This document shows positions 10,381 to 32,000 of a DNA stretch of 32,000 nucleotides, piece by piece. Each line of letters starts with the position of its first letter. Positions within the stretch are counted from its first letter, which is position 1. Made by a program: the position numbers and the translations under genes. Under the pieces are notes generated by a model. The model was given only the letters and a program-made list of their open reading frames with translations, did not search any database and was not told the DNA's origin. The DNA is taken from assembly GCF_000175255.2 (NCBI RefSeq), contig NC_017183.1, positions 284 through 32,283 on the forward strand, given 5' to 3'. The DNA comes from Zymomonas mobilis subsp. mobilis ATCC 10988 (lineage in GTDB: Bacteria; Pseudomonadota; Alphaproteobacteria; Sphingomonadales; Sphingomonadaceae).

Positions 10381-10383
10381 CCC

Positions 10384-11135
10384 ATGGTCATTCCATTGAT
10401 GCTGCCTGTCTTGCTCCTTGCCGCTGTTGGCGAACAGCGCGTGGCCGATGCCGCAGAACGCATCGCCGATGAACTTGGTCTCACTCCCGATGAACGCGAA
10501 GAAATGCTGCCCAGCGGGCGGCAACGCCTGTTGCACAACCGCATCCATTGGGCAAAGTTCTATATGTCCAAAGCAGGGGCGTTTCATCGCGACCGAAGCG
10601 GGGCGGGCGCTGCTGGCATCCAATCCTGCATGCATCAGTGTGAGCGACCTCAAGGACTATGAAGGCTTCTGCGAATTTTACAGTGGACAGAAATCTTCTG
10701 ACGACGATGCCGGGTCTGTTGCCATTGCCCCGTCAGTCGAAACTGATACGCCATAGGAGCAGATTGAGACGGCCTATCAGGCTGTGCAATCGGCCCTTCG
10801 TGCGGAATTTCTGGAACGCATCGTCCAGAACAGTCCGGCCTTTTTCGAGCAACTGATCGTCGATTTACTGATCGCTATGGGATATGGCGGATCGTACAAG
10901 AATGCAGTCACCCAGCTCGGCCGTTCTGGTGATGGCGGCGTGGATGGTGTCATCAACGAAGACAGGCTGGGGCTGGATCATGTTTATGTGCAGGCCAGGA
11001 GGTCTGTGGGTCGCCCCGATGCGCAGGCGTTCGTTGGTAGTCTGGTCGGGCATGCTGCTACCAAGGGCGTTTTCGTTACCCCTCCGCCTTCAGCAATCAT
11101 GCCCAGGATTATGATAAACACCTAAGGTGGCGCTT
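10384..11135 (+). pseudogene. mrr: Mrr-family type IV restriction endonuclease, multiply disrupted and 3'-truncated
   Basis: Mrr-N-like LPSGRQRLLHNRIHWAKFYMSKAG and catalytic-domain-like DLLIAMGYGG...GDGGVDGVI...VYVQA. Extra G in the G4 run 10576-10579 (frameshift). In-frame TAG at 10754-10756. A second frameshift near 11078-11083. Homology stops near 11120 with roughly 60 C-terminal residues missing. Confidence 0.8.
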
Positions 11136-11219
11136 TTTATGCAGCCTTGCCCATTGGTAGCTTCCCTCGTTTTCCTGTTAAAATACTCCTTGTTTCTCAA
11201 AAGCTATGTCCTCTTTTTT
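11136..11219. repeat. Long-range inverted repeat, left copy (IR-L)
   Basis: Reverse-complement match to 30690-30773 with about 5 mismatches in 84 bp by hand alignment. Contains two 13-bp direct repeats 23 bp apart (11163-11175 and 11186-11198). Confidence 0.9.
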
Positions 11220-11525
11220 TCGTTCTTCGGATTGTGTTTCATCTGGCTACGAGTAGGTACTTCTTAAAAAGAGGAAATGAGGAAAATTAGACAGGAATAG
11301 TCGTGGGAAGCTGCCGGTAAAAAGGTTCAACCATGCAATTTTGTTCGAGCTGAGAAAGATCAAATATAATATAAATGACCGTATCTATAATTATAAACGG
11401 TGTATGTTAAAAAAAGCCTTGATATCATTATCTCATTTCAGCTCAACAGAAAATCATAATAAAATTTTGTAAGTAAATACTAAATTTTTAGATTATCTAT
11501 CTATATATTCTATAATTATAATTTT

Positions 11526-14500
11526 TTAAGGTCTCATTTTTCTTCTAAGCTCGGTAAACTTAGGATCAGATTTTATACATTCAATATTACTGAGCTTATC
11601 GATTAATTCTCCTATTTTATATCCATAAAATATATCCTGTATATCAGATGGGATAATGACCTGAAGTAACTTAAAAATTTCTTTCGGAAATTTGAGTATG
11701 ATTGTGTCATCCAAACGAGAAAAACAGTTAGCAATTTTCAAGCTATTTTTAATAATAGTTAATCGTGGTGAAATCAGTTGTACTATGTCCGGCATTTTAT
11801 CATCTGCCAATAGCGCGATTTCAATGAGTTCTTCAGATAAAGCTTGGGTTCGAGTTATAAGTTGACGTGGCCAGACTTTATTAAGAAATTCTATAACTTC
11901 TGTCCATTTTTGTTTTTCTTTTGCCCATATCTTGACAGAATTTATTATAGTAATGCGCCCTTTATCATCTGTTTTTATAAGAAAATCACGTAATTCTTCG
12001 TTATTAACTAGCCTGTCTCCTTCTTGATTTAATGATATCCATCCTCTAAATAGCAAGCGCATAACTATGCCATAATTTTTATGATTTTTCTGTGATACTA
12101 AATCGGTTAAAATTATTTTTAGACGAGCAAACAGATCATGGTTCCAGCTAGTATATTGACATGCTGATGAAATAAATGCCCTGGAGGATTCAGAATTAGG
12201 ATTTTGCTCTATCTGTGAAATAATATGCTCATCAGTCCATTGCTTGTCGATAGAATAGATCCGGCCTAGCTTGGTGCCAAATATTGCCATAACACAACAA
12301 AGCGCATCATTCTTTGCTGATATTAGGCAATTAGCACGTGTGTGCCATTCCTCATCTATAGTCTTATTTAAGATTTCATCAATAAGTAATACTGTCATCT
12401 TACCTATAGGAGAGTTTATCGATTTAAATAGCCAGTTTTCTTGTTTTTTATCTACAACTAGAGTTTCTGATTCTGCAAAAGAGATAAGGACAGATTTAAC
12501 TATTCGTTCCCATAATTTTAAGTAGGATTTTTTTGCATCTATAGCCAATGCCCGACCATGTTGTTCCATCCATGATGCAATAGAATCAATGCTGGTATTG
12601 AATACTTCTTCTGATAATGAGTAGATCCGTTCTACAATTAGTATCTTTAGTCTTAGTTTATCTGTACGGCGTGCTTCGTTACAGAGAAACTCTGACCAAT
12701 ATTGCCTACGGGTTTCTCCACGTTTCGCTGCATAAATTAAGGCAGCTAATGCCTTAACGGGGTATTCTTTTGATAATCCTTTAAAGGGGCGCCTTTCTAT
12801 TAAAAAGTCAGGCGATTTTCTTGAAATATCATCAGATTTTTCTAGTATTTTATCAATAGGAATTCCAAATAGTTCTGTAATATCTGTGTCTGTAGCAACA
12901 CAACCGCCGCGTGAACTTGATCTATAAGTATTATCTAGAGCATATTCCGGTGTCCATTCAGGGGTAATTTTACGCAGTTCTAGACGCTTTGTTTCTAAGT
13001 CGAAGCTGACCGTCAATTTTTCTTTTTTAAGCCATTCAAGACGGTTAAGAATCTGACAGGTTCGATATTCTTTATATTGCTGGTCATCGATACCTTTATA
13101 TCGTTTTGGACCGGATAAAATTTTATTTTCAATTTTTTCCCTTGTTTCTTCATCAAACTCGGACCATCGAGTATTAAGTGATACAAGCAAGTCATGCTGA
13201 ATTTGGATATCCCAGAACACATCATTCGATAAATTCAGAATTATGTCACTGGCCTCTTGTTGAGAGGTCAGTCCTGCTTGACCTGTTACCCAGACATATA
13301 AATTTCTAAAAATTTTATCCTCTGAATCTGGCCATTTCCTCCATTCACAGCGCGCTGCCTCTGAATTATGCTCGTATAGCTGTTTTAATTCATTTGCGTA
13401 GTGTCTAATCAAAGAAGATATATTTTCTTCCTCATTATCAGGAATGCTAGCTGGATCGTCATATTCAACGATAGGATGGAGTCTAGGATCAAAATAGCCT
13501 TGATTGTCAATCTCGAGATCTTCGGCTGATTCTAGATAGCTGCGAATTACGCGTATATAACGAACTAAGAATTTTTTCGGGATTTTCATTTCAGTAGGAT
13601 GATTTGGATAAATAACTTTTGCTGAGACGAGATCTTGATGATTTTTTGTATCATCTAGAGGTATTTTTCTTTTGCTTCCCACTGAAATGCGCGGTCGTTT
13701 TAGATTTTCAAATTCGCGCTGTAGCCAAGATGTCCAGCCTTCCTTTTTAGAAAAATAATATAGTTCCCAAAATTTTGAATTACAATTTTCATCCGATGAA
13801 TCTGACTTAGATGACAAGAGTAAATGCCATGCCTGTCTGATAGGACTTTCCATATTTCCATCTATATTGTGAGTTATATTGTTAGTAAGTTCAGAGTGTA
13901 ACCAGTTCTGGCGGCTAGCCCACCATACAGTGATATTTTGATTCACTACGCGGCCAATCCAGTACGCTAATGATTGTAGTCGTGCAGGAAGGTTGTTTCC
14001 TTTATTTCTGAGACTAATAAACAAGTTCTGTTTGTTATTAGATGTTTCTTCAAATGCTGACCATACATTGGAAGGTATTAGATGTTTTTGTGAATTGTCC
14101 TCAGGAAGAGGTCGTGGATCACTATCGAGGCAAAAGTTATTAAAGATCGCTAGGGGATCCAGTATTTCTTCAAATAAATCATGAAGATAATTTTGATTAC
14201 TATATCGAATAAAAGGATCAAAGACACATAGCCATTCCGCCGATGGGGGCGTTGCATGACCTGCAAATTTTTTCGCTCCAGAAGTTGATGACACGACATG
14301 GGCTACCTGTCCTCGTTCGTAAGGATCAAGCTCCCTAGGTTTTTTTAGTGCTTTGTCTGAAATGATAGATTTCTGCCACTCATGTGGATCATTCGCTCTC
14401 TCTCCCCACGCTTTCAGTGATTCCCACAGAGATGGGAAATCTTGATGAGAAATTGCAGTAACTCCCTTGTCCTGCCAGAGAGCGGAGGCTTCATCTTCCT

Positions 14501-15275
14501 TTCCTTGTTGAAAGGTATACAGTCCTCTTGTTTTTGTTGATCCTTTCAAACCTTCAAGCAAATATTGAATCGGAGGATCATCTGCAGAATAACCAACGAA
14601 AACAATCTTATATCTTTCTACGAGAGTCTTCATGAAAGCTGTTGCCCATCCATCAGAGAGATAGGCGCGTCCAAAGTCGGCGGATGAGAGTATAAACTCC
14701 TTTGACGCTGCGTCTGAGTAGTCAGGATTGACCATACCATGCAAATGGATAATCCCTTCCCATTCATCTCTTCTGGGATCTGGCAAATCGGGGGGTGAAA
14801 TTTCGGGGATATCTGGTGCAGCAAGCTGGAATAATCGATCAAAATTTGTTGTAATAAGCCGATGTCGTCCATTCGGCATTTTGGAAAGATTAAATAAAGA
14901 TTTATGAGGATCAAGGCCAGGATTAGAGTTTGGTTTTACTGCCTGTGAAACATCTGATCGTATATCTTCTACCGCAAATTCTTGTTCTAATAATGCAAAA
15001 ATTCTATCAGCGGGAGGTATACCTCCAACGCCGGGTGGGGTTTCTATCTTATCAGAAATTTCTAAAAGCTGTCGAGCTGGACTCGAAGCCGATGATCCAA
15101 GAGAAGAGATAACTCGTTTTGCTAGCTCAGGAAAGCTTAGCCCTCCTGCCTCTTGCATCGATATCCCAGCTCCACAGAAGAATAAAACTTCTCCTTCATC
15201 TCGCGCATAAAGAAGGTCATCTGGTATATCTGGGCCATCAGCAAAAAATCGCATTCTAGATGTTAGCCTAAACAA
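11526..15275 (-). CDS. SIR2-like (SIR2_2-type) N-terminal domain fused to ~950-aa helical C-terminal region; DSR1-like candidate defence protein
   Basis: 1249-aa uninterrupted ORF in very AT-rich DNA. The N-terminal ~250 aa carry FFCGAGIS (aa 32-39), ITTNFDRLF, IIHLHGMV and FVGYSADDPPIQYLL, the motif order of bacterial SIR2_2 NADase domains. The remainder is unrecognised and rich in L/I/K/E/W. Confidence 0.8.
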   Translation of the reverse strand: MFRLTSRMRFFADGPDIPDDLLYARDEGEVLFFCGAGISMQEAGGLSFPELAKRVISSLGSSASSPARQLLEISDKIETPPGVGGIPPADRIFALLEQEFAVEDIRSDVSQAVKPNSNPGLDPHKSLFNLSKMPNGRHRLITTNFDRLFQLAAPDIPEISPPDLPDPRRDEWEGIIHLHGMVNPDYSDAASKEFILSSADFGRAYLSDGWATAFMKTLVERYKIVFVGYSADDPPIQYLLEGLKGSTKTRGLYTFQQGKEDEASALWQDKGVTAISHQDFPSLWESLKAWGERANDPHEWQKSIISDKALKKPRELDPYERGQVAHVVSSTSGAKKFAGHATPPSAEWLCVFDPFIRYSNQNYLHDLFEEILDPLAIFNNFCLDSDPRPLPEDNSQKHLIPSNVWSAFEETSNNKQNLFISLRNKGNNLPARLQSLAYWIGRVVNQNITVWWASRQNWLHSELTNNITHNIDGNMESPIRQAWHLLLSSKSDSSDENCNSKFWELYYFSKKEGWTSWLQREFENLKRPRISVGSKRKIPLDDTKNHQDLVSAKVIYPNHPTEMKIPKKFLVRYIRVIRSYLESAEDLEIDNQGYFDPRLHPIVEYDDPASIPDNEEENISSLIRHYANELKQLYEHNSEAARCEWRKWPDSEDKIFRNLYVWVTGQAGLTSQQEASDIILNLSNDVFWDIQIQHDLLVSLNTRWSEFDEETREKIENKILSGPKRYKGIDDQQYKEYRTCQILNRLEWLKKEKLTVSFDLETKRLELRKITPEWTPEYALDNTYRSSSRGGCVATDTDITELFGIPIDKILEKSDDISRKSPDFLIERRPFKGLSKEYPVKALAALIYAAKRGETRRQYWSEFLCNEARRTDKLRLKILIVERIYSLSEEVFNTSIDSIASWMEQHGRALAIDAKKSYLKLWERIVKSVLISFAESETLVVDKKQENWLFKSINSPIGKMTVLLIDEILNKTIDEEWHTRANCLISAKNDALCCVMAIFGTKLGRIYSIDKQWTDEHIISQIEQNPNSESSRAFISSACQYTSWNHDLFARLKIILTDLVSQKNHKNYGIVMRLLFRGWISLNQEGDRLVNNEELRDFLIKTDDKGRITIINSVKIWAKEKQKWTEVIEFLNKVWPRQLITRTQALSEELIEIALLADDKMPDIVQLISPRLTIIKNSLKIANCFSRLDDTIILKFPKEIFKLLQVIIPSDIQDIFYGYKIGELIDKLSNIECIKSDPKFTELRRKMRP

Positions 15276-15883
15276 TAAGATTAAAATACATTTTAGTTTA
15301 ATATTGAATAACTAAATATTTTTAATTGCATATAGATTTATCATCGTAAATTCAGGAAGGCTGTTAACCAGTCTACAAGTTTTTATAGAAAAAAATTATA
15401 AAATTTAAGTGAGGTAGAAGATAGCAATATATCTGGTACGTCCACGAACGAAGCGTGATCTATCTGCTCTTTCTGGATTGAAGCAGTTTTCCTCCATTGC
15501 AAGCCGTATGATCTGCTGCATAGGATATAAAGCGATCTTCTGGAGTTATGGAAATAACACAAAATGGAGACATCTTCGTGTTGCAGTGGAGGTTTGTTGG
15601 TGATCGAGATGTCTCTCATGAACGCATCTGATCTATATAACTCTCTACATATTCCTGCGAAACAGTGCGATATGCTAGCCACCTGCCAACGATGAGCAGC
15701 TTATCGGTTGAGGTATCTAGCCAAAAATCCTAGGATCTAGATCAAGCAGTAGCGCGCTGTAGCCACTCGATATAAAAAATTGCGACATCATTTCTGGCTT
15801 TTATCCATTTTTTTCCAACCATTTATTCCGTTTCAATTACCATATGGCTTAACTGACGAGGCGTCATCAGATCTGTTGTTTTT

Positions 15884-15901
15884 GTATCTTATTTAAGATA
15901 C
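15884..15901. promoter_or_regulatory. Palindrome GTATCTTA-TT-TAAGATAC upstream of dinJ (candidate TA operator)
   Basis: Perfect 8-bp arms with a 2-bp spacer, ~28 bp upstream of the dinJ ATG. AGGAG RBS at 15918-15922. Confidence 0.45.
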
Positions 15902-15928
15902 AATCTCAATCAAGATAGGAGTCCTCTC

Positions 15929-16207
15929 ATGCCTACAGCAAAAACAATGATACATATTCGGGTCGCAGGTGACCTGAAAGAACAGGTAAGCACTACCCTT
16001 GCCTCTATGGGCTTATCTGTTTCCGAAGCTGTTCGTTTATTCCTACATCGTGTCGTAGCAGAACAAAAATTCCCTTTCGAACTACGTGTCCCGAATGCAG
16101 AAACCCGGCTGGCAATGTCTGAAGCTGATGAAATTATTAAAAGCCACCAAAGTCGTTTTTCTAATTCCAAAGAGTTGATCGATGGCCTTGAAGCGCACAG
16201 CAAATAG
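15929..16207 (+). CDS. dinJ: RelB/DinJ-family antitoxin
   Basis: IHIRVAGDLKEQVSTTLASMGLSVSEAVRLFLHRVVAEQKFPFEL is a typical DinJ RHH N-terminus. Overlaps the toxin gene. Confidence 0.85.
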   Translation: MPTAKTMIHIRVAGDLKEQVSTTLASMGLSVSEAVRLFLHRVVAEQKFPFELRVPNAETRLAMSEADEIIKSHQSRFSNSKELIDGLEAHSK

Positions 16208-16511
16208 TAAGCGTGCTTCTCTACCGAGATCCTCCGATTATACCAAAACCTTCCTAAAGGACTGGAAGCGCTTATCACGATCAGGACGCTACGATCTTAA
16301 TCGTCTAAAGTCAGTCATGATGCTCCTGATTGAGAATGATGAACCCTTGTCCGCTGAATGGTTAGATCATCCTTTAAAGGGTGAAATGGCCGCCTATAGG
16401 GAATGTCATATAGGGGGTGACTTCCTGCTTATTTACAGAATAGACAACAGCCGTCAGCCCGAAATGGTGATCTTCGTACGGGCGGGAACACATTCAGAAC
16501 TCCTAGAATAA
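16182..16511 (+). CDS. yafQ: YafQ/RelE-family mRNA interferase toxin
   Basis: YTKTFLKDWKRL...LIENDEPLSAEWLDHPLKGEMAAYRECHIGGDFLLIYR...FVRAGTHSELL matches the YafQ pattern (DHPL.G....R..H......LIY...GTHS.LF). The start could be ATG 16182 or TTG 16188. Confidence 0.85.
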   Translation: MALKRTANSKRASLPRSSDYTKTFLKDWKRLSRSGRYDLNRLKSVMMLLIENDEPLSAEWLDHPLKGEMAAYRECHIGGDFLLIYRIDNSRQPEMVIFVRAGTHSELLE

Positions 16512-16527
16512 AGGCTTATTTCTTAAA

Positions 16528-16589
16528 ATACGTATCGACGTATATAGCTAAATACGTATTTAAGTTAAAAAGGATTGACGTATGCACGT
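16528..16589. promoter_or_regulatory. ATACGTAT-box array, copy a (upstream of parA)
   Basis: Boxes ATACGTAT 16528-35, ACGTATAT 16538-45 and ATACGTAT 16552-59. The near-palindrome ACGTATATAGCTAAATACGT spans 16538-57. ACGTATGCACGT at 16578-89 overlaps the parA ATG. Preceded by AATAAAGGCTT at 16507. Confidence 0.7.
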
Positions 16590-17205
16590 TATTACGTTTT
16601 TAAGTCAAAAGGGCGGTAGTGGTAAGACAACCCTTTCGGTTCACACGGCTGTGGCAGCAGAGGCTGTCGGCAAGAAAGTCTGCATCATTGATGCTGATCC
16701 TCAAGAGAGTGCAACAACTTGGGGGATGTCTCGGGAAAAGCCGACACCTATCGTAGCTACGGCTCAAGCTAGTGATCTGGATGCCGCCCTTTCGGCAGCT
16801 GAGGCAGAAGGTATAGACTTGGCTATCATTGATGCACCGCCTCATGCCGCTCCTACGGCTAGTCAGATCGCCCGTCGAAGTGATTTTATTCTAGTCCCTA
16901 TTAGACCAAGCGCTTTTGACTTAGCGGCTGTGCCGGCAATTATGGATATTATTAGGGCATCGAAATCGAGAGGCGCTTTCATTCTGTCAGCCTGTCCTTT
17001 CCGTGCTCCAGAGATCGAAGAGACACGCCTTGCTTTAGAAAGCTATAATCTTCCTATTTTTCCATCCGAGATTGTTGACCGTCGCGCTTTTGCTCGCGCA
17101 GTCACCACTGGATGCGCAGTCACAGAATTTGAAAGCAATGGCAAAGCTGCTGAAGAGATCCATCATTTATGGACTTGGATTAATAATACGTTAGAACGTA
17201 TATAG
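16582..17205 (+). CDS. parA: ParA-family partition ATPase (small, type Ib-like)
   Basis: Deviant Walker A SQKGGSGKTT, IIDADPQ, IIDAPP. 207 aa. Confidence 0.9.
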   Translation: MHVITFLSQKGGSGKTTLSVHTAVAAEAVGKKVCIIDADPQESATTWGMSREKPTPIVATAQASDLDAALSAAEAEGIDLAIIDAPPHAAPTASQIARRSDFILVPIRPSAFDLAAVPAIMDIIRASKSRGAFILSACPFRAPEIEETRLALESYNLPIFPSEIVDRRAFARAVTTGCAVTEFESNGKAAEEIHHLWTWINNTLERI

Positions 17206-17221
17206 CTATATACGTATATAC
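17186..17221. promoter_or_regulatory. ATACGTAT-box array, copy b (parA/RHH gene junction)
   Basis: Perfect 20-bp palindrome ACGTATATAGCTATATACGT at 17196-17215, overlapping the parA stop. Flanking ATACGTTA. Followed by AAATAAGGGCTTTTT. Confidence 0.7.
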
Positions 17222-17241
17222 TTAAATAAGGGCTTTTTGCT

Positions 17242-17532
17242 ATGGCCAAGAAACCAACCGGACTAGCTGCTTTTTCCCGCCCTAAAGCGGTTACTCATCT
17301 TTCGACAGATGAGCCCACCTCTACCATCGAAAATCAAACAGCCTTTCCGATGCGCAAGAAAAGAGGATCAGGTGACACCGTTGCTTTAACGGTGAAAGTT
17401 CGCCGCACCGATTGGCAACGATTACGTCAGCTGGCGGATGCAGAGGGAACAACAATTCAAGCTATGGCCGAGGCAGGCTTTTCTGCTATCCTCGCCCAAC
17501 ATGGTTTAGCGTCTCTTAAGACAAGAAAGTAA
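17242..17532 (+). CDS. Putative ribbon-helix-helix partition/regulatory protein (ParG/omega-like)
   Basis: Position immediately after parA. Disordered basic N-terminus, then VALTVKVRRTDWQRLRQLADAEGTTIQAMAEAGFSAIL, a beta-strand + two-helix pattern. Confidence 0.6.
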   Translation: MAKKPTGLAAFSRPKAVTHLSTDEPTSTIENQTAFPMRKKRGSGDTVALTVKVRRTDWQRLRQLADAEGTTIQAMAEAGFSAILAQHGLASLKTRK

Positions 17533-17576
17533 ACGTATCAACGCATATAGCTAAATACGTATTGAGCTATATGCGT
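17533..17576. promoter_or_regulatory. ATACGTAT-box array, copy c (downstream of RHH gene)
   Basis: AACGTATC, ACGCATATAGCTAAATACGT (17541-60) and AGCTATATGCGT (to 17576). Followed by AAATAAAGATTTTTT. Confidence 0.7.
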
Positions 17577-17629
17577 AAATAAAGATTTTTTATATACGAG
17601 ATGTCAATATTCACAGTTCTTGTCTAACA

Positions 17630-18289
17630 TTGCGCATCTGTCTTACTCAGATGAAAAATTGGTTAGAGTCTCATCCTCGTCATATACCGATTTTTGTTAT
17701 GATCGAAGCCAAGGTACAACCTTTGCATTTAAAGCTTGCTAGTAACCCAGCTAAAACCCCAAATTTTTCAAAAATACCGCCCTTCACCGATGAAACTTAT
17801 AACGAAATCGATCAAACTATTGTGGATGTATTAGGTCGAAACAAAGTTATTATCCCCGATGATGTGAGAGGCGGCTATCCTAATTTGGAAGATGCAGTTT
17901 TTGCTGGAAATTGGCCAACACTTGGCCAAGCACGTGGAAAATTTATCTTTTTCTTAACAACAGCGACAGGCCGTGACGGCGTCGCGGCATATCTGAATGG
18001 TCATCCGGGGCTTAAAGGGCGAATGGCATTTATGGATTCCGAACCTGGAAAACCTTATGCCGCTTTTGTTCTTGAAGATAATGCCTTAACCCAGGGAAAT
18101 ATTATTCGGAATGATGTCAAAAAAGGATATATTGTCCGAACCAGAGCCGATATTGATACCTACGAAGCTAAAAAGAATGATCTAACAAGGGGGAAGGCTG
18201 CATTTGATTTTAGCGCTAAAGCGGCTGGCAACGCGGTATGTCGGAAAACCTCTGAGCACAATAAAGGTGCTCGGATTATTTCTCACTAA
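17630..18289 (+). pseudogene. Fragment of a Ca2+-dependent PI-PLC-like phospholipase C (N-terminal half missing)
   Basis: ICLTQMKNWLESHP.HIPIFVMIEAK...GYIVRTRADIDTYEAKKNDLTR resembles the middle and C-terminal part of bacterial PI-PLC-C1-type proteins (from memory). The reading frame opens only at 17579, right at array c. The C-terminal tail is aberrant. Confidence 0.55.
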
Positions 18290-18424
18290 GAAGCGAAAAA
18301 ATAAATATAGCGTTATAATATAACTTTAAATATTAAATGTGATTCCCTGTGAGAAATAATATAATGTATTTTTTAAATGTAAAAAAAGTAATTTTAAAAT
18401 AGATATTCATTTATTAAGTATTTT

Positions 18425-19795
18425 ATGAACGCATACGGAGAATTTTGTGGAAATAAAAAAATAAGTATTAAAAATTTCAGAGGCATTCAAAATGCCGATT
18501 TTGATTTTTGCAATAAAGTTAATCTAATAGTTGGTATTAATGGCGCAGGAAAAACGAGTGTTTTAGATAGTATAGCTCTATTATTATCATGGCTTATTAA
18601 CAGAACTCTTAATAAAAATTCTTCAGGACAACCAATTAATGATTTGAGTATTCGTAATGGGTGTCGGGAGGCCGCTCTTTCGATAACAGTAAATTATGAT
18701 AATCAAGATTTTAACTGGATGCTTGTAAAAACAGGGAGAGGCTTAAATGCTAGATCTCAGAAATCAGAACTTTCTCTCTTGGCGGCTCTTTCCAAGAGAT
18801 TCCAAATAGAGTTGGATAATAAAAACGATGAGGCTTCACTGCCTTTGTTTGTCTATTATCCTGTAGATAGGGCAATTGTAAAGGTACCTATTCGGCGTCG
18901 AAGAAGACAGGCTTTTAGTCAATTATCTGCATATGATGAGGCTCTTAACCCAAACGTAAATTTTAAAAGTTTTTTTGAATGGTTTCGATTTGAGCAAGAG
19001 AAACATAATTCTTCTTTAGCTAATCTTCTGCATTCTATGGATTTGTCGGATACTGATTCCCTGCTTTTTAAAGCTACAAAATACAGAAAAACTATAAAAG
19101 AAATTCTTAAGGAATTATATAATCCTCTATCTTCTAAAGGGTTGAAGGCGGTATGCCAAGCTATTTATGAATTTATGCCAGGATTTTCTGACCTTAGAGT
19201 TTTATACGAGCCATTAAGAATGGTGATCGAAAAAGAAGGTGTGCATTTAAATCTCCTTCAACTCTCTGGAGGAGAAAAATGTATGTTAGCGTTAATTGGA
19301 GATATCGCCCGACGACTTGTTCTAGCAAATCCCAGCATGGACAATCCCCTAAAAGGTAAAGCTATCATCTTGATAGATGAAATCGATCTTCACCTTCATC
19401 CAAGGTGGCAAAAAAATATTATAGAACGATTAAATTCTACATTTCCTAATTGTCAGTTTATTATAACAACACACTCTCCTCATATTATAACTCACGTTCA
19501 TTCAAATTGTATATCCATCATTTCTACAAATGAAAATGGAGCTTTTAATGTAAGTAAGGCTCGAAATTCTTACGGATTTTCTTCAGAAGTTCTTTTGTCT
19601 GAAATTATGGGACTGGACACAACGCGTCCCCAAAAGATCCAAGATAAATTGGATAAAATTTTTCAAAATATTTCAGACAATGAACTGGATGAGGCAGAAA
19701 CAAAGCTACAATGTTTAAAAACAATAATGAGAGACGATCCCGATGTCGTAAAAGCTGAGGCTCTTATTTTTAGAAAAAAAATTATCAATAAATGA
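18425..19795 (+). CDS. ptuA: AAA/ABC-type ATPase, Septu PtuA-like
   Basis: Walker A GINGAGKTS, signature LSGGEKCML, Walker B IILIDEIDLHLHP, H-loop ITTHSP. ATGA overlap with an HNH gene. Confidence 0.8.
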   Translation: MNAYGEFCGNKKISIKNFRGIQNADFDFCNKVNLIVGINGAGKTSVLDSIALLLSWLINRTLNKNSSGQPINDLSIRNGCREAALSITVNYDNQDFNWMLVKTGRGLNARSQKSELSLLAALSKRFQIELDNKNDEASLPLFVYYPVDRAIVKVPIRRRRRQAFSQLSAYDEALNPNVNFKSFFEWFRFEQEKHNSSLANLLHSMDLSDTDSLLFKATKYRKTIKEILKELYNPLSSKGLKAVCQAIYEFMPGFSDLRVLYEPLRMVIEKEGVHLNLLQLSGGEKCMLALIGDIARRLVLANPSMDNPLKGKAIILIDEIDLHLHPRWQKNIIERLNSTFPNCQFIITTHSPHIITHVHSNCISIISTNENGAFNVSKARNSYGFSSEVLLSEIMGLDTTRPQKIQDKLDKIFQNISDNELDEAETKLQCLKTIMRDDPDVVKAEALIFRKKIINK

Positions 19796-20409
19796 AACAA
19801 ATAAAAAAAACAAAAGAGCCTCAGTCCTTTTCTGAATGGAAGGCTAAAGCAAATTCTGATTGGAAACCTGCATGGGAAAATTTACAGAATCCTGAAAAAG
19901 TAGATATTTTAGAAAAGTTAATTGAAGATCAACATGGAATATGTTGTTATTGTGAAGCTAGAATCTCTGTAGAATCTGCACATATTGAACATATAGTTCC
20001 AAGGAGTATTGATATTAGAAAAAGGTTATCTTTTTCTAACCTTTTAGCATCTTGTCAAAAAGAAACTCAAAAAGGGGATCCTCTGACTTGCGGAAAATCT
20101 CGTGGCGATTGGTACGATAAAGATTTTTATTTGAATCCATGTGATGAGAATTCTCGAAAAGAAATTATCTACTTATTAGATGGAAATGTTACGGTACAAA
20201 ATAAAAATTTTAAAATTTTTATCGAAAAAATCAATTTAAATATTGAGTCAAAAAAAAGAGCACGTTCTAACGTTATAGATATTTTTACAGATTTAGATAC
20301 TAGCGATGCCCAAAAAATATTGGACGTTTGGCTCTCTGAAAAAGTATATCATCCTTATATAAGTGCAGCTCTCACTGCTGCTAAAGAGTTATGTGGAATT
20401 GAATACTGA
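19792..20409 (+). CDS. ptuB: HNH endonuclease, Septu PtuB-like (TIGR02646-type)
   Basis: HGICCYCEARISVESAHIEHIVPRS HNH core plus a downstream Cys-containing segment. Coupled to the ATPase gene. Confidence 0.8.
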   Translation: MKQIKKTKEPQSFSEWKAKANSDWKPAWENLQNPEKVDILEKLIEDQHGICCYCEARISVESAHIEHIVPRSIDIRKRLSFSNLLASCQKETQKGDPLTCGKSRGDWYDKDFYLNPCDENSRKEIIYLLDGNVTVQNKNFKIFIEKINLNIESKKRARSNVIDIFTDLDTSDAQKILDVWLSEKVYHPYISAALTAAKELCGIEY

Positions 20410-20541
20410 GAAATTTTTAACTTTCTAACACTACTAGATCGGAGAGATTTTACTTTGGCCATTTCCACTGGTCGTGTTGCCATAGAAAATAGAGGAAATA
20501 TTGGTGGTTATCTTTGTTCTTTCCAGACCTTAAAAAATTAA

Positions 20542-20579
20542 TACGTAAATACGTATGTAGTTATCTACGTATTTACGTA
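20542..20579. promoter_or_regulatory. ATACGTAT-box array, copy d (variant)
   Basis: Perfect 14-bp inverted arms TACGTAAATACGTA (20542-55) and TACGTATTTACGTA (20566-79) with a 10-bp spacer. 33 bp left of the IS. Confidence 0.6.
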
Positions 20580-20612
20580 ATTTTATCCATATTATTCCCT
20601 TACTATTACTAG

Positions 20613-21457
20613 GCTCAGGACTCATTCTTTGAGATAGAAGATGAAACTTGCTGCGATATGGATTGCTGACATGAATGTGTGAGCGCACCGGTCGTATCGT
20701 GTTGCGACACGCCGCCAGTCTTTGAGCTTTGCGAACATATTTTCGATGAGGTGACGTTTTTTATACAGATGCCAGTCGTAAGGCGGCTTTGATTTCCGGT
20801 TCTTCTTCGGCGGAATACAGGCGGTGATATTCCGGTCTGCGAGAGACTGTCTGATTTTATTACTGTCGTATCCCCGGTCCCCGAGAATTTCTTGTGTTTC
20901 TTCCGGCAGATTTGCCAGCAGAACATCCGCGCCTTTGAAGTCACTGACCTGACCTGCGGTCAGATGCAGCCGGACAGGGCGGCCCTGACTATCGCATACA
21001 GCGTGAAGCTTTGAGTTCAGTCCGCCTTTCGTGCGTCCGATATGGCGGGGAAAAGCCCCTTTTTGAGCAGGGAGGCCGCTGTCCGGTGTGCTTTCAGATG
21101 TGTTGCATCGATCATCAGACGCTTTGAACGGCCTGCCTGCTCCGTCAGGGCGACGAAGATCCGGTCAAAGACACCCAGGCGGCTCCACCGGATAAACCGG
21201 TTGTATAAAGTCTTGTGCGGGCCATACGCTTTCGGGGCGTCTTTCCACTGAAGGCCGTTGCGGATCACGTAAACGATCCCGCTCAGGACACGACGGTCAT
21301 CGACACGCGGCACACCATGCGCCAGTGGAAAAAACGGCTTAATCCGTTCCATCTGGTGCTCAGACAGCAAAAACACGTCACTCACAGCTTCACCTCCATC
21401 GGTAAACCTGTGAATCACAACAGCCCGCTCAACTCAAGAAATTAACAGGTCCTGAGC
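20613..21457 (-). mobile_element. IS5-family (IS427-group-like) insertion sequence, 845 bp
   Basis: Terminal inverted repeats GCTCAGGAC / GTCCTGAGC. CTAG on both flanks (20609-12 and 21458-61). Two-frame transposase inside. Confidence 0.9.
20622..21418 (-). CDS. IS5-family DDE transposase, two frames joined by probable -1 programmed frameshift
   Basis: orfA is 21017-21418 (RVLSGIVYVIRNGLQWKDAP...). The downstream frame, which has no ATG, reads IGRTKGGLNSKLHAVCD...GDRGYDS...RHLIENMFAKLKDWRRVATRYDR. Slippery CAAAAAGG on the coding strand at about 21059-21066. Confidence 0.85.
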
Positions 21458-22034
21458 CTAGATAAGCCAACTAGCTTAACGACAAGCCTTTGAACATTGG
21501 ATACGATCCCGCGACAACGAACTAACAAAACATTCCAGTGTTCTAACTCTGAAAGTTTTTATTCTGCTATCAAGCCAGACTGACTGGATAGATGACATCA
21601 AAATTGCTGATTAAATCAGAGTGTCCTTGGTCAAGAAATAGTGGTAAAATTATGTCTAATGTTGCCAAAAATCTCGAATTGACTTAAATGTGGAGTTCTG
21701 CGTTGAAATGCGTTGGGTGGAGAAGAATAATTTTATTAGATTATCTGCTTTATAGGCCTAAATACAGGCATTTATGACCTGTCTTGCGTCATATTCCGAT
21801 GCGTAAAAATCGGGGGGCAAATTTACCGCGGGTTTCGGCTGGCATCGAACGCAAAGGGTCTGAAAAAACATTTCTGAAATAATATTGCTAACGTTTCGTT
21901 AGACATTTTTGGGTAAATTTTAGACATAAAAAATCTGTCAGTTGTGCCTCACGCTTGATAAGCGAGGCAGATGCGTTACCTTCATACCATTCACATGATG
22001 GCGATCGAGATAATTAAAATAAAGGCTTTTTTGC

Positions 22035-22066
22035 AATACGTATAAACGCATATAGCTAAATACGTA
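22035..22066. promoter_or_regulatory. ATACGTAT-box array, copy e (immediately upstream of darG)
   Basis: ATACGTAT 22035-42, ACGCATATAGCTAAATACGT 22045-64, ATACGTAT 22059-66. Box phasing (0/+10/+24) is identical to copies a and f. Preceded by AAATAAAGGCTTTTTT. Confidence 0.7.
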
Positions 22067-22094
22067 TTTAAATTGATAGCTACGCCCGACCGGA

Positions 22095-23186
22095 ATGGTA
22101 TTTCTGATGATTATCTTCACGCAAGGCAACCTACTAGAAGCTAAAGTCGAGGCTCTTGTTAATACCGTTAACACCGTCGGTGTGATGGGTAAGGGTATTG
22201 CGCTCATGTTTAAAGAGCGCTTCCACGAGAACTTTCGCCTGTATTCTGCTGCGTGTAAGGCTAAGGAAGTTCAAATCGGTAAGATGTTCGTTACTCCAGT
22301 CTATGAACTAGGGGAAACACGCTGGATTGTGAACTTTCCGACTAAACAGCATTGGCGTAATCCGTCACGAATAGAATGGATTATAAAAGGCTTACAGGAT
22401 CTACGGCGTGTCCTGCTCGAAAAGAATATAAAATCTATTGCTATTCCTCCTTTGGGTGCTGGCAATGGCGGGCTTTCATGGAAAGATGTTCGTGGACAGA
22501 TCGAGTTGGCCTTAAGTGATCTCGATATTGATATTTTTGTGTTTGAGCCGACTACCCAATACCAAAACGTGGCTAAGAGGACAGGCGTAGAAAAACTAAC
22601 GCCCGCCCGCGCGTTAATAGCTGAATTAGTCCGTCGATACTGGGTAATGAGTATAGAGTGTAGTTTGCTTGAAATTCAAAAGCTGGCTTGGTTTCTTCAG
22701 AGAGCTATTGAACAGTATTCTCCAGATAATAATCCACTGAATTTAGATTTTCAGCCACATAAATATGGTCCTTATACTCATCAGCTAAACCACTTGTTGA
22801 ATAATTTAGATGGGAGCTATCTTCATTCTGATAAACGTATCAGCGATAGCGACCCGCTGGATGTCATTTTATTTGTTGATAAGCGCAAAGACGATTTACA
22901 GGCTTATTTGAAAAGTGAGGCCAAGCCTTACAGGCAAGCATTAGAATCTGCCGCCATGCTTATTGATGGTTTTGAGTCCCCCTTTGGGATGGAGCTGCTG
23001 GCTACAGTTGACTGGCTGCTAACTCGCGAAAATATAGAACCTAATGTGTCAGCTTTACGTAAGGGATTGCGTTCTTGGCGAGGTGGTGCAGATGCGGCCT
23101 TGCGTAAAGATCGAATTTTTAATGACCGATCTTTGGGAATTGCCCTTGATCGCTTAACTAAAATCTCTACGCCTGTAATGGCGTAG
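22095..23186 (+). CDS. darG: DarG-like macrodomain ADP-ribosyl glycohydrolase antitoxin (no darT partner present)
   Basis: N-terminal macrodomain: [63 protein letters not shown]-terminal region [11 protein letters not shown]...KYGPY...[17 protein letters not shown] as recalled for the DarG toxin-binding domain. The true start may be ATG 22107. Confidence 0.85.
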
Positions 23187-23295
23187 AGTGTCTTATCTCT
23201 TCTTTATTGAGGAAGCTATTAGGCCGAAATAGTCATCTGTTTTCAATTAGGTAATTATCCATAACGCCTAAAATAAAGGTTTTTTATAAATGGAG

Positions 23296-23359
23296 ATACG
23301 TCTTAACGTATATAGCTAAATACGTATTTAAGTTAATAGCTATATTTGTATTTACGTAT
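23296..23359. promoter_or_regulatory. ATACGTAT-box array, copy f (downstream of darG)
   Basis: ATACGTCT 23296-303, ACGTATATAGCTAAATACGT 23306-25, ATACGTAT 23320-27, TTACGTAT 23352-59. Preceded by AAATAAAGGTTTTTT. Confidence 0.7.
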
Positions 23360-23500
23360 TATGTAGCCTGATGCTACTTATATGATATTCGGTTAGCTGG
23401 GAGAGATAATGTAAAGATACAGCCCGTTATTAACAGAAGGTTGAATGCCAATTTCACAGGAATTGCAGCGGTTAGAAAGAAAAGGGCTTTTGGTTCTTAA

Positions 23501-23764
23501 TTAAAAGAAATCGGGTGGAGGTGCCGGTGCCGGAACAGCATTTGCGTCGAATGCGAACAAGGCAAATTGCAACCAAGAGGGTTCTCGTTTTACTATCCCA
23601 TTTTCAAAGCGAGAAATCGATTGTTGTGTAGTGGTGAAAATAGCACCTCGCTTTTCAGCTTCCTTAGAAACCATATCGGCTAGCTTTTGCGCACTCCATC
23701 CCCTTTTTATCCGAGACGCTCGAACAAACTCGCGGAGCTTATCTAAATCCGTTAAGTTATCCAT
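23501..23764 (-). CDS. Atypical HTH protein, paralogue 3 (HTH only, 87 aa)
   Basis: Shares W[ST]..KLA.(~12 aa).QQSIS.FENG..K..P.W with the two upstream genes. 5-nt gap from paralogue 2. Confidence 0.6.
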   Translation of the reverse strand: MDNLTDLDKLREFVRASRIKRGWSAQKLADMVSKEAEKRGAIFTTTQQSISRFENGIVKREPSWLQFALFAFDANAVPAPAPPPDFF

Positions 23765-23769
23765 CTGGC

Positions 23770-24276
23770 CTATTCGTTGTAAAGCAAAGGGTGAGATAAC
23801 GCGACTGGGAATTTTTTTGCCAGTGAAGATGCAATATTTTGTTTAAGTGACCATGAGTCACTAAAGTCTACATCCAAAGGAACTAATAAACTCAAAAACA
23901 AGTTTTTGAGTTTATCTTCGCTTGGAAGAATTTCTTTATAGATAATTTTTTTATTATCATCTTCTGATATTGTATCAGTCGAAAATTTCGGTTCTTCTTC
24001 TTTTGTGAAAGAAGGTTTAGATACTACAAAATCTGTTAGTTTAGCCTGCTCCAACAAAGCTGCTTTTACATAATTCAGCCACAGAGGTATCGACTTTATT
24101 TTTCCATTTTCAAACAAGGAAATAGATTGCTGTTGTAAATTTAGTTTAACGCCATGACGTGCAGCCACCTGTTTTGCTTCGTCAGCTAACTTTGCTGCCG
24201 TCCAGTTTATACGTTTACGCTCATTTCTTATCCATGTGCGTATTTCGTCTATTTTTGAGATACTGGTCTGCGTCAT
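23770..24276 (-). CDS. Atypical HTH protein, paralogue 2 (168 aa, with conserved C-terminal module)
   Basis: Same N-terminal pattern. C-terminal LPSEDKLKNLFLSLLVPL...IASSLAKKFP aligns with paralogue 1. Confidence 0.6.
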   Translation of the reverse strand: MTQTSISKIDEIRTWIRNERKRINWTAAKLADEAKQVAARHGVKLNLQQQSISLFENGKIKSIPLWLNYVKAALLEQAKLTDFVVSKPSFTKEEEPKFSTDTISEDDNKKIIYKEILPSEDKLKNLFLSLLVPLDVDFSDSWSLKQNIASSLAKKFPVALSHPLLYNE

Positions 24277-24301
24277 AATATCTATTTATACCAAAAAGAT
24301 A

Positions 24302-24751
24302 TTACTGAAACAAACTTATCTGTTCCAAGCCTTTCGGAAGACGTTGCGCTAAAATACTGGCAATTTTTCGTTTTAATTGGGGTGTTATATCTTCCTCTAC
24401 TGGAGTTAAAAGACCCAGAAACAATTTTTTAAGATCTTTTTCTTCCGGAAGGCCGACATTTTTTGATGCATTACATTTTGTTAAGGTAATGGAGTTCATC
24501 GTCGGAGAGATAGGGTTATTCTCAAATGCAGCCATTACATAAGGCATCCATGACGGAATGCTCTTAATTTGCCCAAGTTCAAAGGCAGAAATGGATTGCT
24601 GCTTAAGGTTACTTTCGACGTTTCTTTGTTTTGCAGCCATACGCGCTTCTTCAGCGAGTTTTGTTCGACTCCAGCCTCGTAGCTGTCGTTCTTCAAAAAT
24701 CCACTTACGGAATTTTTCAACAGTTCTCAATTTTGAAGATGCTTCATTCAT
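24302..24751 (-). CDS. Atypical HTH protein, paralogue 1 (149 aa)
   Basis: GWSRTKLAEEA...QQSISAFELGQIKSIPSW. C-terminal LPEEKDLKKLFLGLLTPV...IASILAQRLP. First gene of a three-gene minus-strand operon. Confidence 0.6.
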   Translation of the reverse strand: MNEASSKLRTVEKFRKWIFEERQLRGWSRTKLAEEARMAAKQRNVESNLKQQSISAFELGQIKSIPSWMPYVMAAFENNPISPTMNSITLTKCNASKNVGLPEEKDLKKLFLGLLTPVEEDITPQLKRKIASILAQRLPKGLEQISLFQ

Positions 24752-28171: not shown

Positions 28172-28597
28172 ATGCGTTATCCTGTTGCTATAGAGCCAGA
28201 TACAAAATCTACGGCTTTTGGTATTGTCGTACCGGATTTACCCGGTTGCTTCTCGGCTGGCGATACGATGGATGAAGCTATTGCCAATGCTGAAGAAGCC
28301 GCATCTGCTTGGATCGATGCCACATTAGATAGTGGTCAAGATATTCCTGTACCTAGTTCTATCTCAGATTTATATAAGAACCCTGATTATAAAGGATGGT
28401 CTTTCGGTTTTATCAATATAGATCCAGCTTTGTTGAGTGATAGGGTAAAGCGGGTAAACATTACTTTACCTGAAAGAGTTCTCGAACGTCTTGATCTCTT
28501 GGCCAAAAAGGCAGGAGAAACTCGTTCTGGTATGATCGCTTCTTTGACCTTAAAAGCTCAAAAACAAACAGATCATCATTCAGCTGTTATGATCTAA
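28172..28597 (+). CDS. hicB: HicB-family antitoxin with C-terminal RHH
   Basis: MRYPVAIEPD...FGIVVPDLPGCFSAGDTMDEAIANAEEA (HicB RNase-H-like fold start). C-terminal RVNITLPERVLERLDLLAKKAGETRSGMIA (RHH). Confidence 0.85.
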   Translation: MRYPVAIEPDTKSTAFGIVVPDLPGCFSAGDTMDEAIANAEEAASAWIDATLDSGQDIPVPSSISDLYKNPDYKGWSFGFINIDPALLSDRVKRVNITLPERVLERLDLLAKKAGETRSGMIASLTLKAQKQTDHHSAVMI

Positions 28598-31200: not shown

Positions 31201-32000
31201 TCAAAATCCCAACTGCTTTGAAGCAGGGAACCCCCTCGATGGTTTGCAGGTCTTCTTTCCGTAGGGTGCAGATTTCGCCCAGCCATAGGCAGCAATAAGG
31301 GTCACAAGCCGGAACGTAGGTTCAGGCACCAAGGCACTATGCCAAGAAGCAGAGGCCAGCAATGCCAGTTCCTGTGGCGTCCAGCTTCGTCGTACGATTT
31401 TGGGGGCACTCTCAAAATGCCAGCCAGACCAAGGGTTCTTTGCCACCATCTCCCGTTGCACAAGTTGGTTCCATAGGGCGGACAGACGAAGCATATGGTT
31501 CTTGACGCTTTTATTGCTCATGGTCGGGAGACCATTAGACTTGGCTCTCTGTGCCTCCTGTTGCAGCGTCAGACTGCTTTTACCCTTGCCCAGTGTTGCA
31601 GGAAGGGCAAGAAGCAGGTCACGGAAGGCTCCAGCTTGGTGACCGCCGATGCCACTGACAGGCGTATCCCCAAAAGCCCTGATATAGAGGGCCACAGTTC
31701 TTTTGGTTGCCGGTGCTGGCCTTGGGATTGCTCAAGACAAATGTGCTAAGGCGTCGGAAAGCATGAGGGCAGGGAGTTTCTTTTCGGTGCTTCGATGTTT
31801 CCTGATGATCTTACAGGTCAGTTTCTCCCTCGGTTTTATGACCTTCCGTTTGGGGGCAGAGGTTGCCTTCGCTTCCTGAGCCATAACCTCAAGTTCCAGC
31901 GTCACCGGGCTTTGAAAGGTAAGAGGAGACGTCAGTTCCTTGCCTGAGAACCGTCCCTGCATATCTGGCCTTATGTAAGACTTCACCTGTGCGGGCATAA
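31201..32000 (-). pseudogene. Tyrosine integrase, disrupted (copy 2; paralogue of 2435-3796), runs off the window end
   Basis: GAFRDLLLALPATLGKGKSSLTL...VKNHMLRLSALWNQLVQREMV...RRSWTPQELALLASASWHS...FRLVTLIAAY aligns closely with copy 1. In-frame TGA near 31727. Frameshift at about 31290 (LGEICTLRKEDLQTIEGVPCF lies in another frame). The catalytic C-terminal half is absent. Confidence 0.8.

Follow-up and report, generated by a model that had tools for sequence, protein, structure and literature searches.

Why the same short repeat module should occur at six separate places on one replicon, next to genes as different as a partition ATPase, a defense pair and an orphan antitoxin gene, is the question raised by a 7-kb segment of DNA from Zymomonas mobilis subsp. 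mobilis ATCC 10988. The segment lies within a stretch of 32,000 nucleotides (positions 284 to 32,283 of contig NC_017183.1), which we refer to as the window and which is Z. mobilis-type plasmid DNA, mosaic relative to sequenced plasmids. The modules are named a to f in map order, and they surround parA, a small gene for a putative ribbon-helix-helix (RHH) protein, a phospholipase fragment with a Septu defense pair, and darG. Our results lead us to propose that all six are probably binding arrays for the RHH protein of a partition (par) system, and that e and f, together with a further array, g, seen in sister plasmids, derive from a duplicated par locus.

A previous sequence-only reading of this DNA had listed the six copies, and their number and places were borne out: the 22-mer ACGTATATAGCTAAATACGTAT, with up to three mismatches allowed, matches nowhere else in the window (eight strand hits, zero expected), and ATACGTAT occurs eight times, against 0.32 expected, every time within a module. 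When the modules are cut into 8-mers, they resolve into tandem 8-bp units of the form NNA[C/G][G/C]TNN that keep a strict 8-bp register throughout, each unit being a palindromic ACGT or AGCT tetramer box with a 4-bp AT-rich spacer. The symmetrized consensus of the unit is A-T-A-[C/G]-[G/C]-T-A-T, with 73% of the boxes ACGT and 27% AGCT, and the number of units varies from three to nine per array. This register, which the earlier reading had overlooked, accounts both for the box phasing of 0, +10 and +24 that it had correctly described and for its near-palindrome around AGCT. An independent scan that chained ACGT/AGCT boxes at multiples of 8 bp returned exactly six arrays in the 32 kb (0.16 expected), and in a position weight matrix (PWM) scan of the whole 32 kb the same six scored 20 to 37, with a null maximum of 12.6 and no seventh array above the null.

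The placement of the first arrays relative to the par genes was also as previously described. Array a covers the ribosome-binding site of parA, its ATG at 16582 and codons 1 to 6; it consists of two sub-arrays, one of four contiguous boxes (16528-16559) and one of three (16576-16599), and the two box-less units between them hold the ribosome-binding site. Array b covers the last codons of parA and its TAG stop at 17203-17205. The flanking motif AAATAAAGGYTTTTT was found, with zero to two mismatches, before a, e and f and after b and c, and it is missing at d. This motif was considered as a terminator and rejected, as it forms no stem. It was likewise rejected as a separate protein site, being Zymomonas-specific, moving with the duplicated a-type module and supplying, at b, the ribosome-binding site of the RHH gene.

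The gene calls between the arrays (parA, RHH, the truncated PI-PLC fragment, Septu PtuA/PtuB and DarG) were confirmed. ParA aligns over residues 1-195 with residues 1-196 of the 206-aa ParF of TP228 (4dzz; E 2e-19), and it scores 183.8 against the NCBIfam model NF041546 (ParA_partition), for which the cutoff is 180. The 96-aa open reading frame of the RHH protein begins 36 nt past parA, just where a type Ib system has its small partner of about 45 to 130 aa, directly downstream, and in presence and position the arrays would supply the repeated cis site that adjoins such operons. Taken together, the size and homology of ParA, the position of its partner and the adjoining cis site fit a type Ib plasmid partition system, which we regard as the most likely identity of the pair.

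An alignment of the RHH protein family displays an invariant N-terminal peptide, M.KKPTGLAAF, followed by a variable linker, a basic patch and a strand-helix-helix C terminus (VALTVKV strand / DWQRLRQLADAEG / TIQAMAEAGFSAVL). In the AF2 model the predicted local distance difference test (pLDDT) values are 75 to 94 for residues 41-90 and below 50 for residues 13-37, a segment that appears disordered. The best 23 Foldseek matches of this model are all RHH proteins, Arc, CopG, NikA and AmrZ among them, at weak E values of 0.4 to 3. The protein matches Pfam Antitox_RHH with E 0.0015 and 19.1 bits (cutoff 27.2), and PF20605 is recorded on many of its homologues. A search of the PDB with phmmer and a family profile gave no RHH match among solved structures and only spurious ones (L19 and convicilin), and no family was found in NCBIfam or PADLOC. 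We regard a C-terminal RHH fold as probable.

The two genes stay paired in every relative examined, and arrays accompany them almost without exception. Among PLSDB entries, 15 Zymomonas plasmids have the module, at five to seven places each, and the Zymomonas plasmids encoding the RHH protein are precisely these 15; in all five sister plasmids compared (pZM32, pZZM405, pZZ6.02, pZYMOP01 and pZA1001) the arrays lie at homologous positions. RHH homologues that are 60 to 70% identical occur on plasmids of Rhizobiales and Rhodospirillales, always behind a parA of 204 to 207 aa, and these plasmids, of 61 to 65% GC, carry 8-bp ACGT/AGCT arrays upstream of parA, at the junction of the two genes and beyond the RHH gene. 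The layout of array a, including boxes in the first parA codons, recurs in pZM32, pZZM405, pZZ6.02 and pZYMOP01 and in the related loci L005, L011, L015 and L016. On beta- and gammaproteobacterial plasmids, where the RHH protein is about 43% identical, TGACGYCA or TAGCGTCA units are found upstream of parA and downstream of the RHH gene, and downstream arrays are present also in the distant relatives L016 and L018.

The same association holds in metagenomes, where in 77 of 78 parA-RHH loci one or more arrays lie between -1000 and +450 bp relative to the beta-strand codons. Altogether these loci hold 188 arrays, against 2.7 expected from shuffled sequence. The periodicity is specific, as counts by period were 0 at 6 bp, 1 at 7 bp, 188 at 8 bp, 22 at 9 bp and 0 at 10 bp. 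No genes other than those for ParA and the RHH protein are shared by all array-bearing settings and, since type Ib ParA proteins have no specific DNA-binding domain, elimination leaves the RHH protein as the binder. The earlier reading had named this protein as the obvious candidate, and the choice gains support from the co-occurrence of arrays with parA-RHH, from the RHH-type architecture of the site and from the covariation described below; in our judgment, binding of the arrays by this protein is very likely. When 185,579 species, each represented by one genome, were scanned for the exact core, it turned up on a plasmid-sized contig of Z. mobilis and otherwise solely as one isolated, unrelated palindrome in a Saccharibacteria metagenome-assembled genome. 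This agrees with the motif not being a general one of the host chromosome, in a scan that allowed no mismatches and that degenerate chromosomal copies would escape.

The gene order around the pair is itself fairly constant: toxin-antitoxin (TA) genes, parA and RHH follow each other in pZM32, pZZM405, pZZ6.02 and pZYMOP01, and a CopG/ParE pair takes the TA place in L010 to L015. As a separate observation, on the 50-kb contig L007 the parA-RHH pair with its arrays (9311-10306) lies beside P2-like tail genes (tube, tape measure, GpU and tail X) and a phage integrase, so that L007 may be a phage-plasmid using the same partition system. Plasmid pZA1001 carries at 1527-2467 a second, unrelated pair of AAA-ATPase and CopG-RHH genes, apparently another partition-like locus, and no ACGT arrays were detected at this second pair.

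The flanks of the units vary together with the protein. In loci with a Lys-type strand (ALTVKVR; 44 loci, 670 units), flank position 2 is T in 53%, A in 25% and G in 10% of units, and 17% of the boxes are AGCT. In loci with an Arg-type strand (ten variants, 35 loci) the flanks read TG...CA; position 2 is G in 56 to 71% and position 1 is T in 50 to 75% of units, and AGCT boxes make up 0 to 3% in all variants but the single-locus VRVR (22%). The beta-strand residue thus co-varies with the unit, Lys going with WTACGTAW and Arg with TGACGYCA, and pairing of Arg with G is a classic contact. That the unit flanks follow a residue of the putative binding strand points to the RHH protein as the binder, and we take this covariation as supportive of binding and not as decisive.

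Comparison of these sequences with known systems suggests ParG on parH as the nearest match in site architecture and omega of pSM19035 as the nearest match in the distribution of sites. In TP228, ParG acts on parH and O_F, where tetramer boxes are separated by regular 4-bp AT-rich spacers, bind one dimer per box and tolerate either orientation, and where arrays of 4 to 12 boxes act as operator and centromere (PMC3130281). Like TP228 parFGH, the present locus combines a small ParA whose best PDB match is ParF, a partner with a flexible N-terminal tail and a C-terminal RHH domain (predicted here), and tetramer boxes spaced by 8 bp. Unlike TP228, it has palindromic ACGT/AGCT boxes instead of ACTC, and its arrays lie upstream of, between and downstream of the genes and at a distance, and not upstream only. 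The RHH protein also has no detectable sequence similarity to ParG, whose structure (1p94) ranks 42nd in the Foldseek search with E 6.7. The likeness to KorB that the earlier reading had drawn did not hold, as a 96-aa RHH-type candidate on tandem 8-bp units is set against a large helix-turn-helix (HTH) ParB on a 13-bp palindromic O_B (PMC3597684).

The omega/delta system of pSM19035 (Inc18, Firmicutes) likewise has an RHH-type partner with an unstructured N terminus and dispersed arrays. There, arrays of 7-bp heptads serve as operators and as parS sites alike at PcopS, Pdelta and Pomega, and the array positions in rep_cluster_1420 plasmids (at copG-rep, TA and parA) mirror omega's copS, delta and omega-epsilon-zeta promoters. 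The differences from omega are several: the units here are spaced and 8 bp long, against unspaced 7-bp WATCACW heptads (188 metagenomic arrays with period 8, one with period 7), the host is proteobacterial, ParA is a ParF-like protein of 207 aa, no array lies at the replication genes of the window, and two of the distal arrays are remnants of a duplicated par locus. The par2 locus of pB171 (parC1-parA-parB-parC2) is also type Ib; its ParB is an RHH protein, and repeat clusters flank the genes on both sides, much as arrays a and c do here and as is seen in L016 and L018. Its repeats are 6 bp long, and it is not known to have an array where the genes meet or any dispersed copies.

In unit geometry the nearest match is provided by the metboxes of MetJ, which are tandem 8-bp palindromes centered on ACGT (AGACGTCT); one RHH dimer binds each of them, and adjacent dimers make cooperative contacts. 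The likeness is closest for the Arg-type TGACGTCA units and is one of geometry, with no homology shown; MetJ is a chromosomal metabolic repressor that needs a corepressor and is not known to have a partition role or a ParA partner. The par locus of pTAR in Agrobacterium is the classic example of an alphaproteobacterial type Ib system: its ParA is small, its ParB has about 94 residues and its parS consists of multiple repeats. Homologues of the present RHH protein do occur in Agrobacterium plasmids. According to a secondary description, which is all that this comparison draws on, the pTAR parS has 13 heptameric repeats spaced by integral helical turns, not obviously in an 8-bp register. All things considered, the locus most likely represents an uncharacterized and widespread RHH-type (type Ib) partition system with omega-like dispersal of its sites.

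How arrays came to lie up to 6 kb from the par genes can be read from the sister plasmids. Arrays e and f are paralogues of a, with which they have the AATAAAGGYTTTTT motif and the array layout in common, and in the sister plasmids they also share with it TAACGTTATTACGTTT, which corresponds to parA codons 2 to 6. In pZM32, pZZM405, pZZ6.02 and pZYMOP01 about 230 bp after f align with the 5' end of parA, Walker-A codons included, and with its 3' end (tblastn E 5e-7 to 1e-5), and array g, a counterpart of b, follows this relic. As judged from these alignments, the segment from f to g represents a second par locus, in which parA has decayed and lost its interior. In the window tblastn found no parA relic, and near d, e and f it found none of RHH, relB or yafQ; the only relics are of parA, and only in the sister plasmids. 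Array f of the window is a fusion of an a-type f with a b-type g from which the pseudogene is gone, and its right flank is the flank that follows g in pZZ6.02 and pZYMOP01. The same fusion of f and g occurs in Z. mobilis AN0101.

This history bears on the claim that the distal modules are tied to darG. Arrays e and f are indeed present there, but they are paralogous to the parA operator region, and since they derive from it, and f and g enclose a dead parA, the modules need not have been wired to darG by selection.

The cargo bracketed by arrays c and d varies among the plasmids. Between c and d the window holds the PI-PLC fragment and Septu, pZM32 a TonB receptor and PLC, and pZYMOP01 PLC fragments, an IS5 element and a dCTP deaminase; in pZZM405, where no d array was detected, the interval from c to e contains a TonB receptor, PLC, DGQHR and a Dam methylase. 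Plasmid pZZ6.02 has no such cargo, and a c/d hybrid array directly follows its RHH gene, which reflects either a recombinational deletion or an ancestral state later split by insertion of cargo. Orthologous d arrays exist in pZM32 and pZYMOP01, and the array scan did not find array d in pZZM405 or pZA1001. In the window, d forms the right border of the cargo and sits at the 3' ends of genes, 22 bp from an IS5 copy whose insertion splits it from the roughly 575-bp segment preceding array e; this segment is contiguous in pZYMOP01, as judged by the extent of homology to NC_015715.

Losses within arrays are in phase with the units. Array b of pZM32 (5650-5690) is shorter by exactly two units (16 bp); the parA stop went with them, and as a result the annotated parA of pZM32 runs on to overlap the RHH gene. 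A listing in the supplement of PMC7566282 gives yafQ of the same plasmid as a pseudogene. One unit is gone from array e of pZZM405. A clean deletion, present in the window and in pZZ6.02, extends from inside array e, which is cut at its right end, to the last 23 nt of darT and leaves darG an orphan; darT is deleted differently, internally, in pZM32 and is kept in pZZM405. By these alignments the darT toxin gene has been lost at least twice, with the darG antitoxin gene retained. The earlier reading had offered, as an alternative, that the modules are recombination sites delimiting cassettes. There is no sign of a dedicated site-specific system, but the arrays have clearly been substrates of homologous or slippage recombination, which deletes or exchanges the DNA that they enclose: f and g have fused in the window, pZZ6.02 has its c/d hybrid, and pZM32 shows an in-phase loss of 16 bp.

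From the observed anatomy, gene association, covariation and history of the arrays we infer a scheme of binding, stoichiometry, partition activity and repression. The 96-aa RHH protein would be the centromere-binding partner, analogous to ParB or ParG, of the ParF-like ParA. By analogy with ParG on TP228 O_F and parH, one RHH dimer would occupy each 8-bp box and dimers would coat an array cooperatively, and the N-terminal peptide M.KKPTGLAAF, carried on a disordered tail, would recruit and stimulate ParA. Array a is likely to serve as an autoregulatory operator that represses parA-RHH and also as a centromere, and b and c would complete a three-part site around both genes. Every loaded array would add to the partition complex, so that d to f might act as accessory centromere sites, and array e could in addition be an omega-like operator for darG (for darT-darG in pZZM405). 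Finally, the dispersed repeats would promote recombination that deletes or swaps the cassettes between them.

Regarding whether the distal arrays are still used, e and f score 36.2 and 36.7 in the PWM scan, against 36.5 for a, with 29 of 32 core positions identical. Arrays a and f are 88 to 92% identical and b and g 81 to 91%, against 67 to 78% for the adjoining pseudogene and parA. Because their consensus boxes have been kept, the distal arrays should still load the RHH protein. Each of the six Zymomonas plasmids examined has an array ahead of darG or darT-darG; array e ends 23 nt short of darG in the window, and in pZZM405 it lies 143 nt upstream of darT. The rep_cluster_1420 relatives have arrays 75 to 140 bp upstream of a CopG/ParE TA operon and of a copG-rep operon, besides those at parA. 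Outside the par regions of the metagenomic loci there are 29 arrays in 195 kb, against roughly 5 expected (the in-region shuffle rate scaled to 195 kb), an excess of about fivefold. On this sequence evidence we lean slightly toward d, e and f being functionally used today; that they regulate transcription of neighboring genes is a more tentative proposition, to which we give less than even weight. The earlier proposal of an omega-style regulon appears plausible inasmuch as the array positions in relatives match omega sites, but the window itself has no array at its replication genes.

Among the same relatives, extra arrays upstream of the CopG/ParE TA operon were seen in plasmids of Ochrobactrum/Brucella, Agrobacterium vitis, Roseomonas, Thalassobaculum, Shinella and Rhizobium, and further ones between a resolvase gene and the copG-HTH (rep) operon. 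These extra arrays are in L005, at 8078-8109 and 17691-17714, and in L010 to L015, and several of the plasmids carry resistance genes, such as IMP-8 on pT210003-IMP.

A stronger version of such a regulon would hold that selection wired darG or darTG, and possibly other cassettes, to the RHH repressor and that the distal arrays are mainly transcriptional. The position of array e close before darG or upstream of darT, the array at this operon in every Zymomonas plasmid examined, the promoter-like distances in rep_cluster_1420 plasmids and the precedent of omega speak for it, and we consider it possible, though short of probable. It has to reckon with e and f being duplicates of the parA operator region, with f heading a dead parA, and with the absence of anything to control downstream of f, g and d. 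The PWM scan also found no array at rep, relBE or hicAB of the window, and a consensus scan located no promoter in the modules. The opposite view, in which only a to c function and the other three are inert, left behind by the decay of a duplicated par locus and by earlier recombination events, is rather unlikely in our estimation. It draws on the parA pseudogene between f and g in sister plasmids and on the visible loss and fusion of arrays (f/g fused in the window and AN0101, e truncated, d not found in pZZM405 and pZA1001, b shortened in pZM32). Yet the box consensus of e and f equals that of a, whereas the neighboring pseudogene drifted; sites with an intact consensus are expected to be bound if the protein is present, whatever their origin; and the over-representation of dispersed arrays extends across the family.

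The remaining two explanations touch the nature of the sites. Another plasmid protein might bind the boxes, such as RelB, HicB, a GapR-like protein, an 87-aa HTH protein or a 624-aa HTH protein, a putative Rep for which the boxes would be iterons. Several such DNA-binding proteins are encoded in the window, and in relatives an array precedes a CopG/ParE operon whose antitoxin is itself an RHH protein. None of the candidate genes is present in all array-bearing contexts, however: beta- and gammaproteobacterial plasmids and L007 keep their arrays with no TA pair, no GapR protein and no Rep of this kind. Arrays are missing near rep, relB and hicB in the window, and the flanks co-vary with the beta strand of the par RHH protein, all of which makes another binder quite improbable; arrays acting as Rep iterons were rejected, as none lies near replication genes. 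Dedicated attC- or res-like recombination sites that capture or delimit cassettes would explain why the bracketed content differs among sister plasmids, why hybrid arrays exist in pZZ6.02 and the window, and why one array overlaps the 3' end of a resolvase gene in rep_cluster_1420 plasmids. Against this, the arrays of the window and of the Zymomonas plasmids have no integrase or resolvase gene next to them, arrays follow parA-RHH and not a recombinase in all but one of the 78 loci, tandem 8-bp units of variable number (4 to 9) are unlike known recombinase core sites, and the junctions lie inside repeats and in phase, as homologous recombination or slippage predicts, so that we regard dedicated sites as hardly credible.

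Our preferred interpretation, that the modules are arrays for the par RHH protein and that e, f and g stem from a duplicated locus, also has points against it. The assignment of the fold combines a sub-threshold Pfam match with Foldseek E values of 0.4 to 7, sequence searches of the PDB returned no RHH protein, and the protein is labeled "hypothetical" in every record seen and matches no curated family. The Lys/Arg-flank covariation may reflect a single ancient split with few independent events. The margin by which the arrays are conserved over the pseudogene is modest, and gene conversion between repeats could yield it without function. A plasmid-wide regulon is not evident in the window, where d lies at gene 3' ends and the plasmid's replication genes have no array; downstream of f, g and d there is no gene for them to control, and the arrays are visibly fused and trimmed. 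A scan for sigma-70 promoters and terminators over 15800-24000 gave 24 promoter-like matches, against 19.8 expected, and none was convincing in any module.

If our interpretation is right, it supplies a likely function and a predicted recognition code for an RHH protein that is labeled "hypothetical" and whose homologues are encoded by plasmids of alpha-, beta- and gammaproteobacteria, among them resistance plasmids of Brucella/Ochrobactrum, Klebsiella and Serratia. The native plasmid pZM32 of strain ZM4 carries the system, and the arrays with parA-RHH are a candidate compact stability cassette and a likely incompatibility determinant for vectors. The covariation of Lys or Arg with the flanks offers a natural test case for RHH specificity, and the relic par locus with its array fusions suggests how partition sites spread on a replicon and then shape the gain and loss of defense cargo. 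Current models would not be overturned by this; the ParG and omega paradigms would be extended to a new lineage.

A bolder and, in our view, doubtful extension is that this unannotated and widespread proteobacterial RHH family acts as an omega-like, plasmid-wide master regulator, with dispersed arrays as recombination joints and a Lys/Arg retargeting switch. Were this the case, partition would be coupled to TA and defense functions (darTG, and parDE-like pairs in relatives) and to copG-rep replication control, and the arrays would double as joints for losing or exchanging the Septu, dCTP deaminase and DGQHR/Dam cassettes. A single Lys/Arg change in the beta strand would then retarget the protein between WTACGTAW and TGACGYCA and would amount to an incompatibility switch.

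Table 1. Positions (window coordinates) of the arrays and of the genes and elements among which they lie
Feature	Position	Strand	Remarks
relB-yafQ toxin-antitoxin pair	15929-16511	+	Pfam RelB E 4e-15, YafQ_toxin E 3e-27; directly upstream of the par operon
AATAAAGGCTTATTT motif before array a	16506-16520	+	Includes the yafQ stop codon; part of the duplicated module common to e and f
Array a	16528-16599	+	Nine 8-bp units, 7 boxes
parA, 207 aa, type Ib Walker ATPase, no N-terminal DNA-binding domain	16582-17205	+	
Array b	17186-17217	+	Four boxes, then the ribosome-binding site of the RHH gene
RHH protein gene, 96 aa	17242-17532	+	Weak RHH signal; unannotated
Array c	17531-17578	+	Six units, from the stop codon of the RHH gene onward; bounds the variable cargo on the left
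Truncated PI-PLC fragment (N-terminal part gone)	17630-18289	+	Pfam PI-PLC-C1, profile positions 115-299 of 329 only
Septu ptuA	18425-19795	+	PADLOC PtuA E 3e-142
Septu ptuB	19792-20409	+	PADLOC PtuB E 4.5e-55
Array d	20541-20580	no strand	40-bp near-palindrome, five units; centre a degenerate AGCT (AGTT here)
IS5-family element	about 20603-21462	-	Megablast to IS5 copies in Acetobacteraceae plasmids; Pfam DUF4096
Module e: AAATAAAGGCTTTTT motif (22017-22031) and array e (22036-22083; six units, 4 boxes)	22017-22083	+	
darT, last 23 nt	22084-22106	+	Alignment with pZZM405, which keeps darT
darG, orphan antitoxin gene	22107-23186 (likely start 22107; longest open reading frame from 22095)	+	PADLOC DarG E 1e-124, aligned from residue 5
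Module f: AAATAAAGGTTTTTT motif (23271-23285) and array f (23296-23359; eight units)	23271-23359	+	

Looking beyond Table 1, the plasmid is largely a defense and addiction island (window 4283-15275, 18425-20409 and 28172-28597) with a 1249-aa Dsr1-like SIR2 protein, Septu, a HicB antitoxin, RelB/YafQ and DarG, and a type I restriction-modification operon that was called by position and by similarity to pZM32. A direct repeat of 300 nt with 71% identity (2952-3251 and 31282-31581) lies within two minus-strand open reading frames that match no Pfam family, 2556-3446 (296 aa) and 31201-31695 (164 aa). To the right of array f, three small open reading frames follow in tandem on the minus strand (23501-24751), one for an 87-aa HTH_3-like protein and two, of 168 and 149 aa, with no family match. 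Each contains one copy of a 39-nt direct repeat (23589-23627, 24095-24133 and 24564-24602; 72 to 77% identity), and the three may be paralogous genes.

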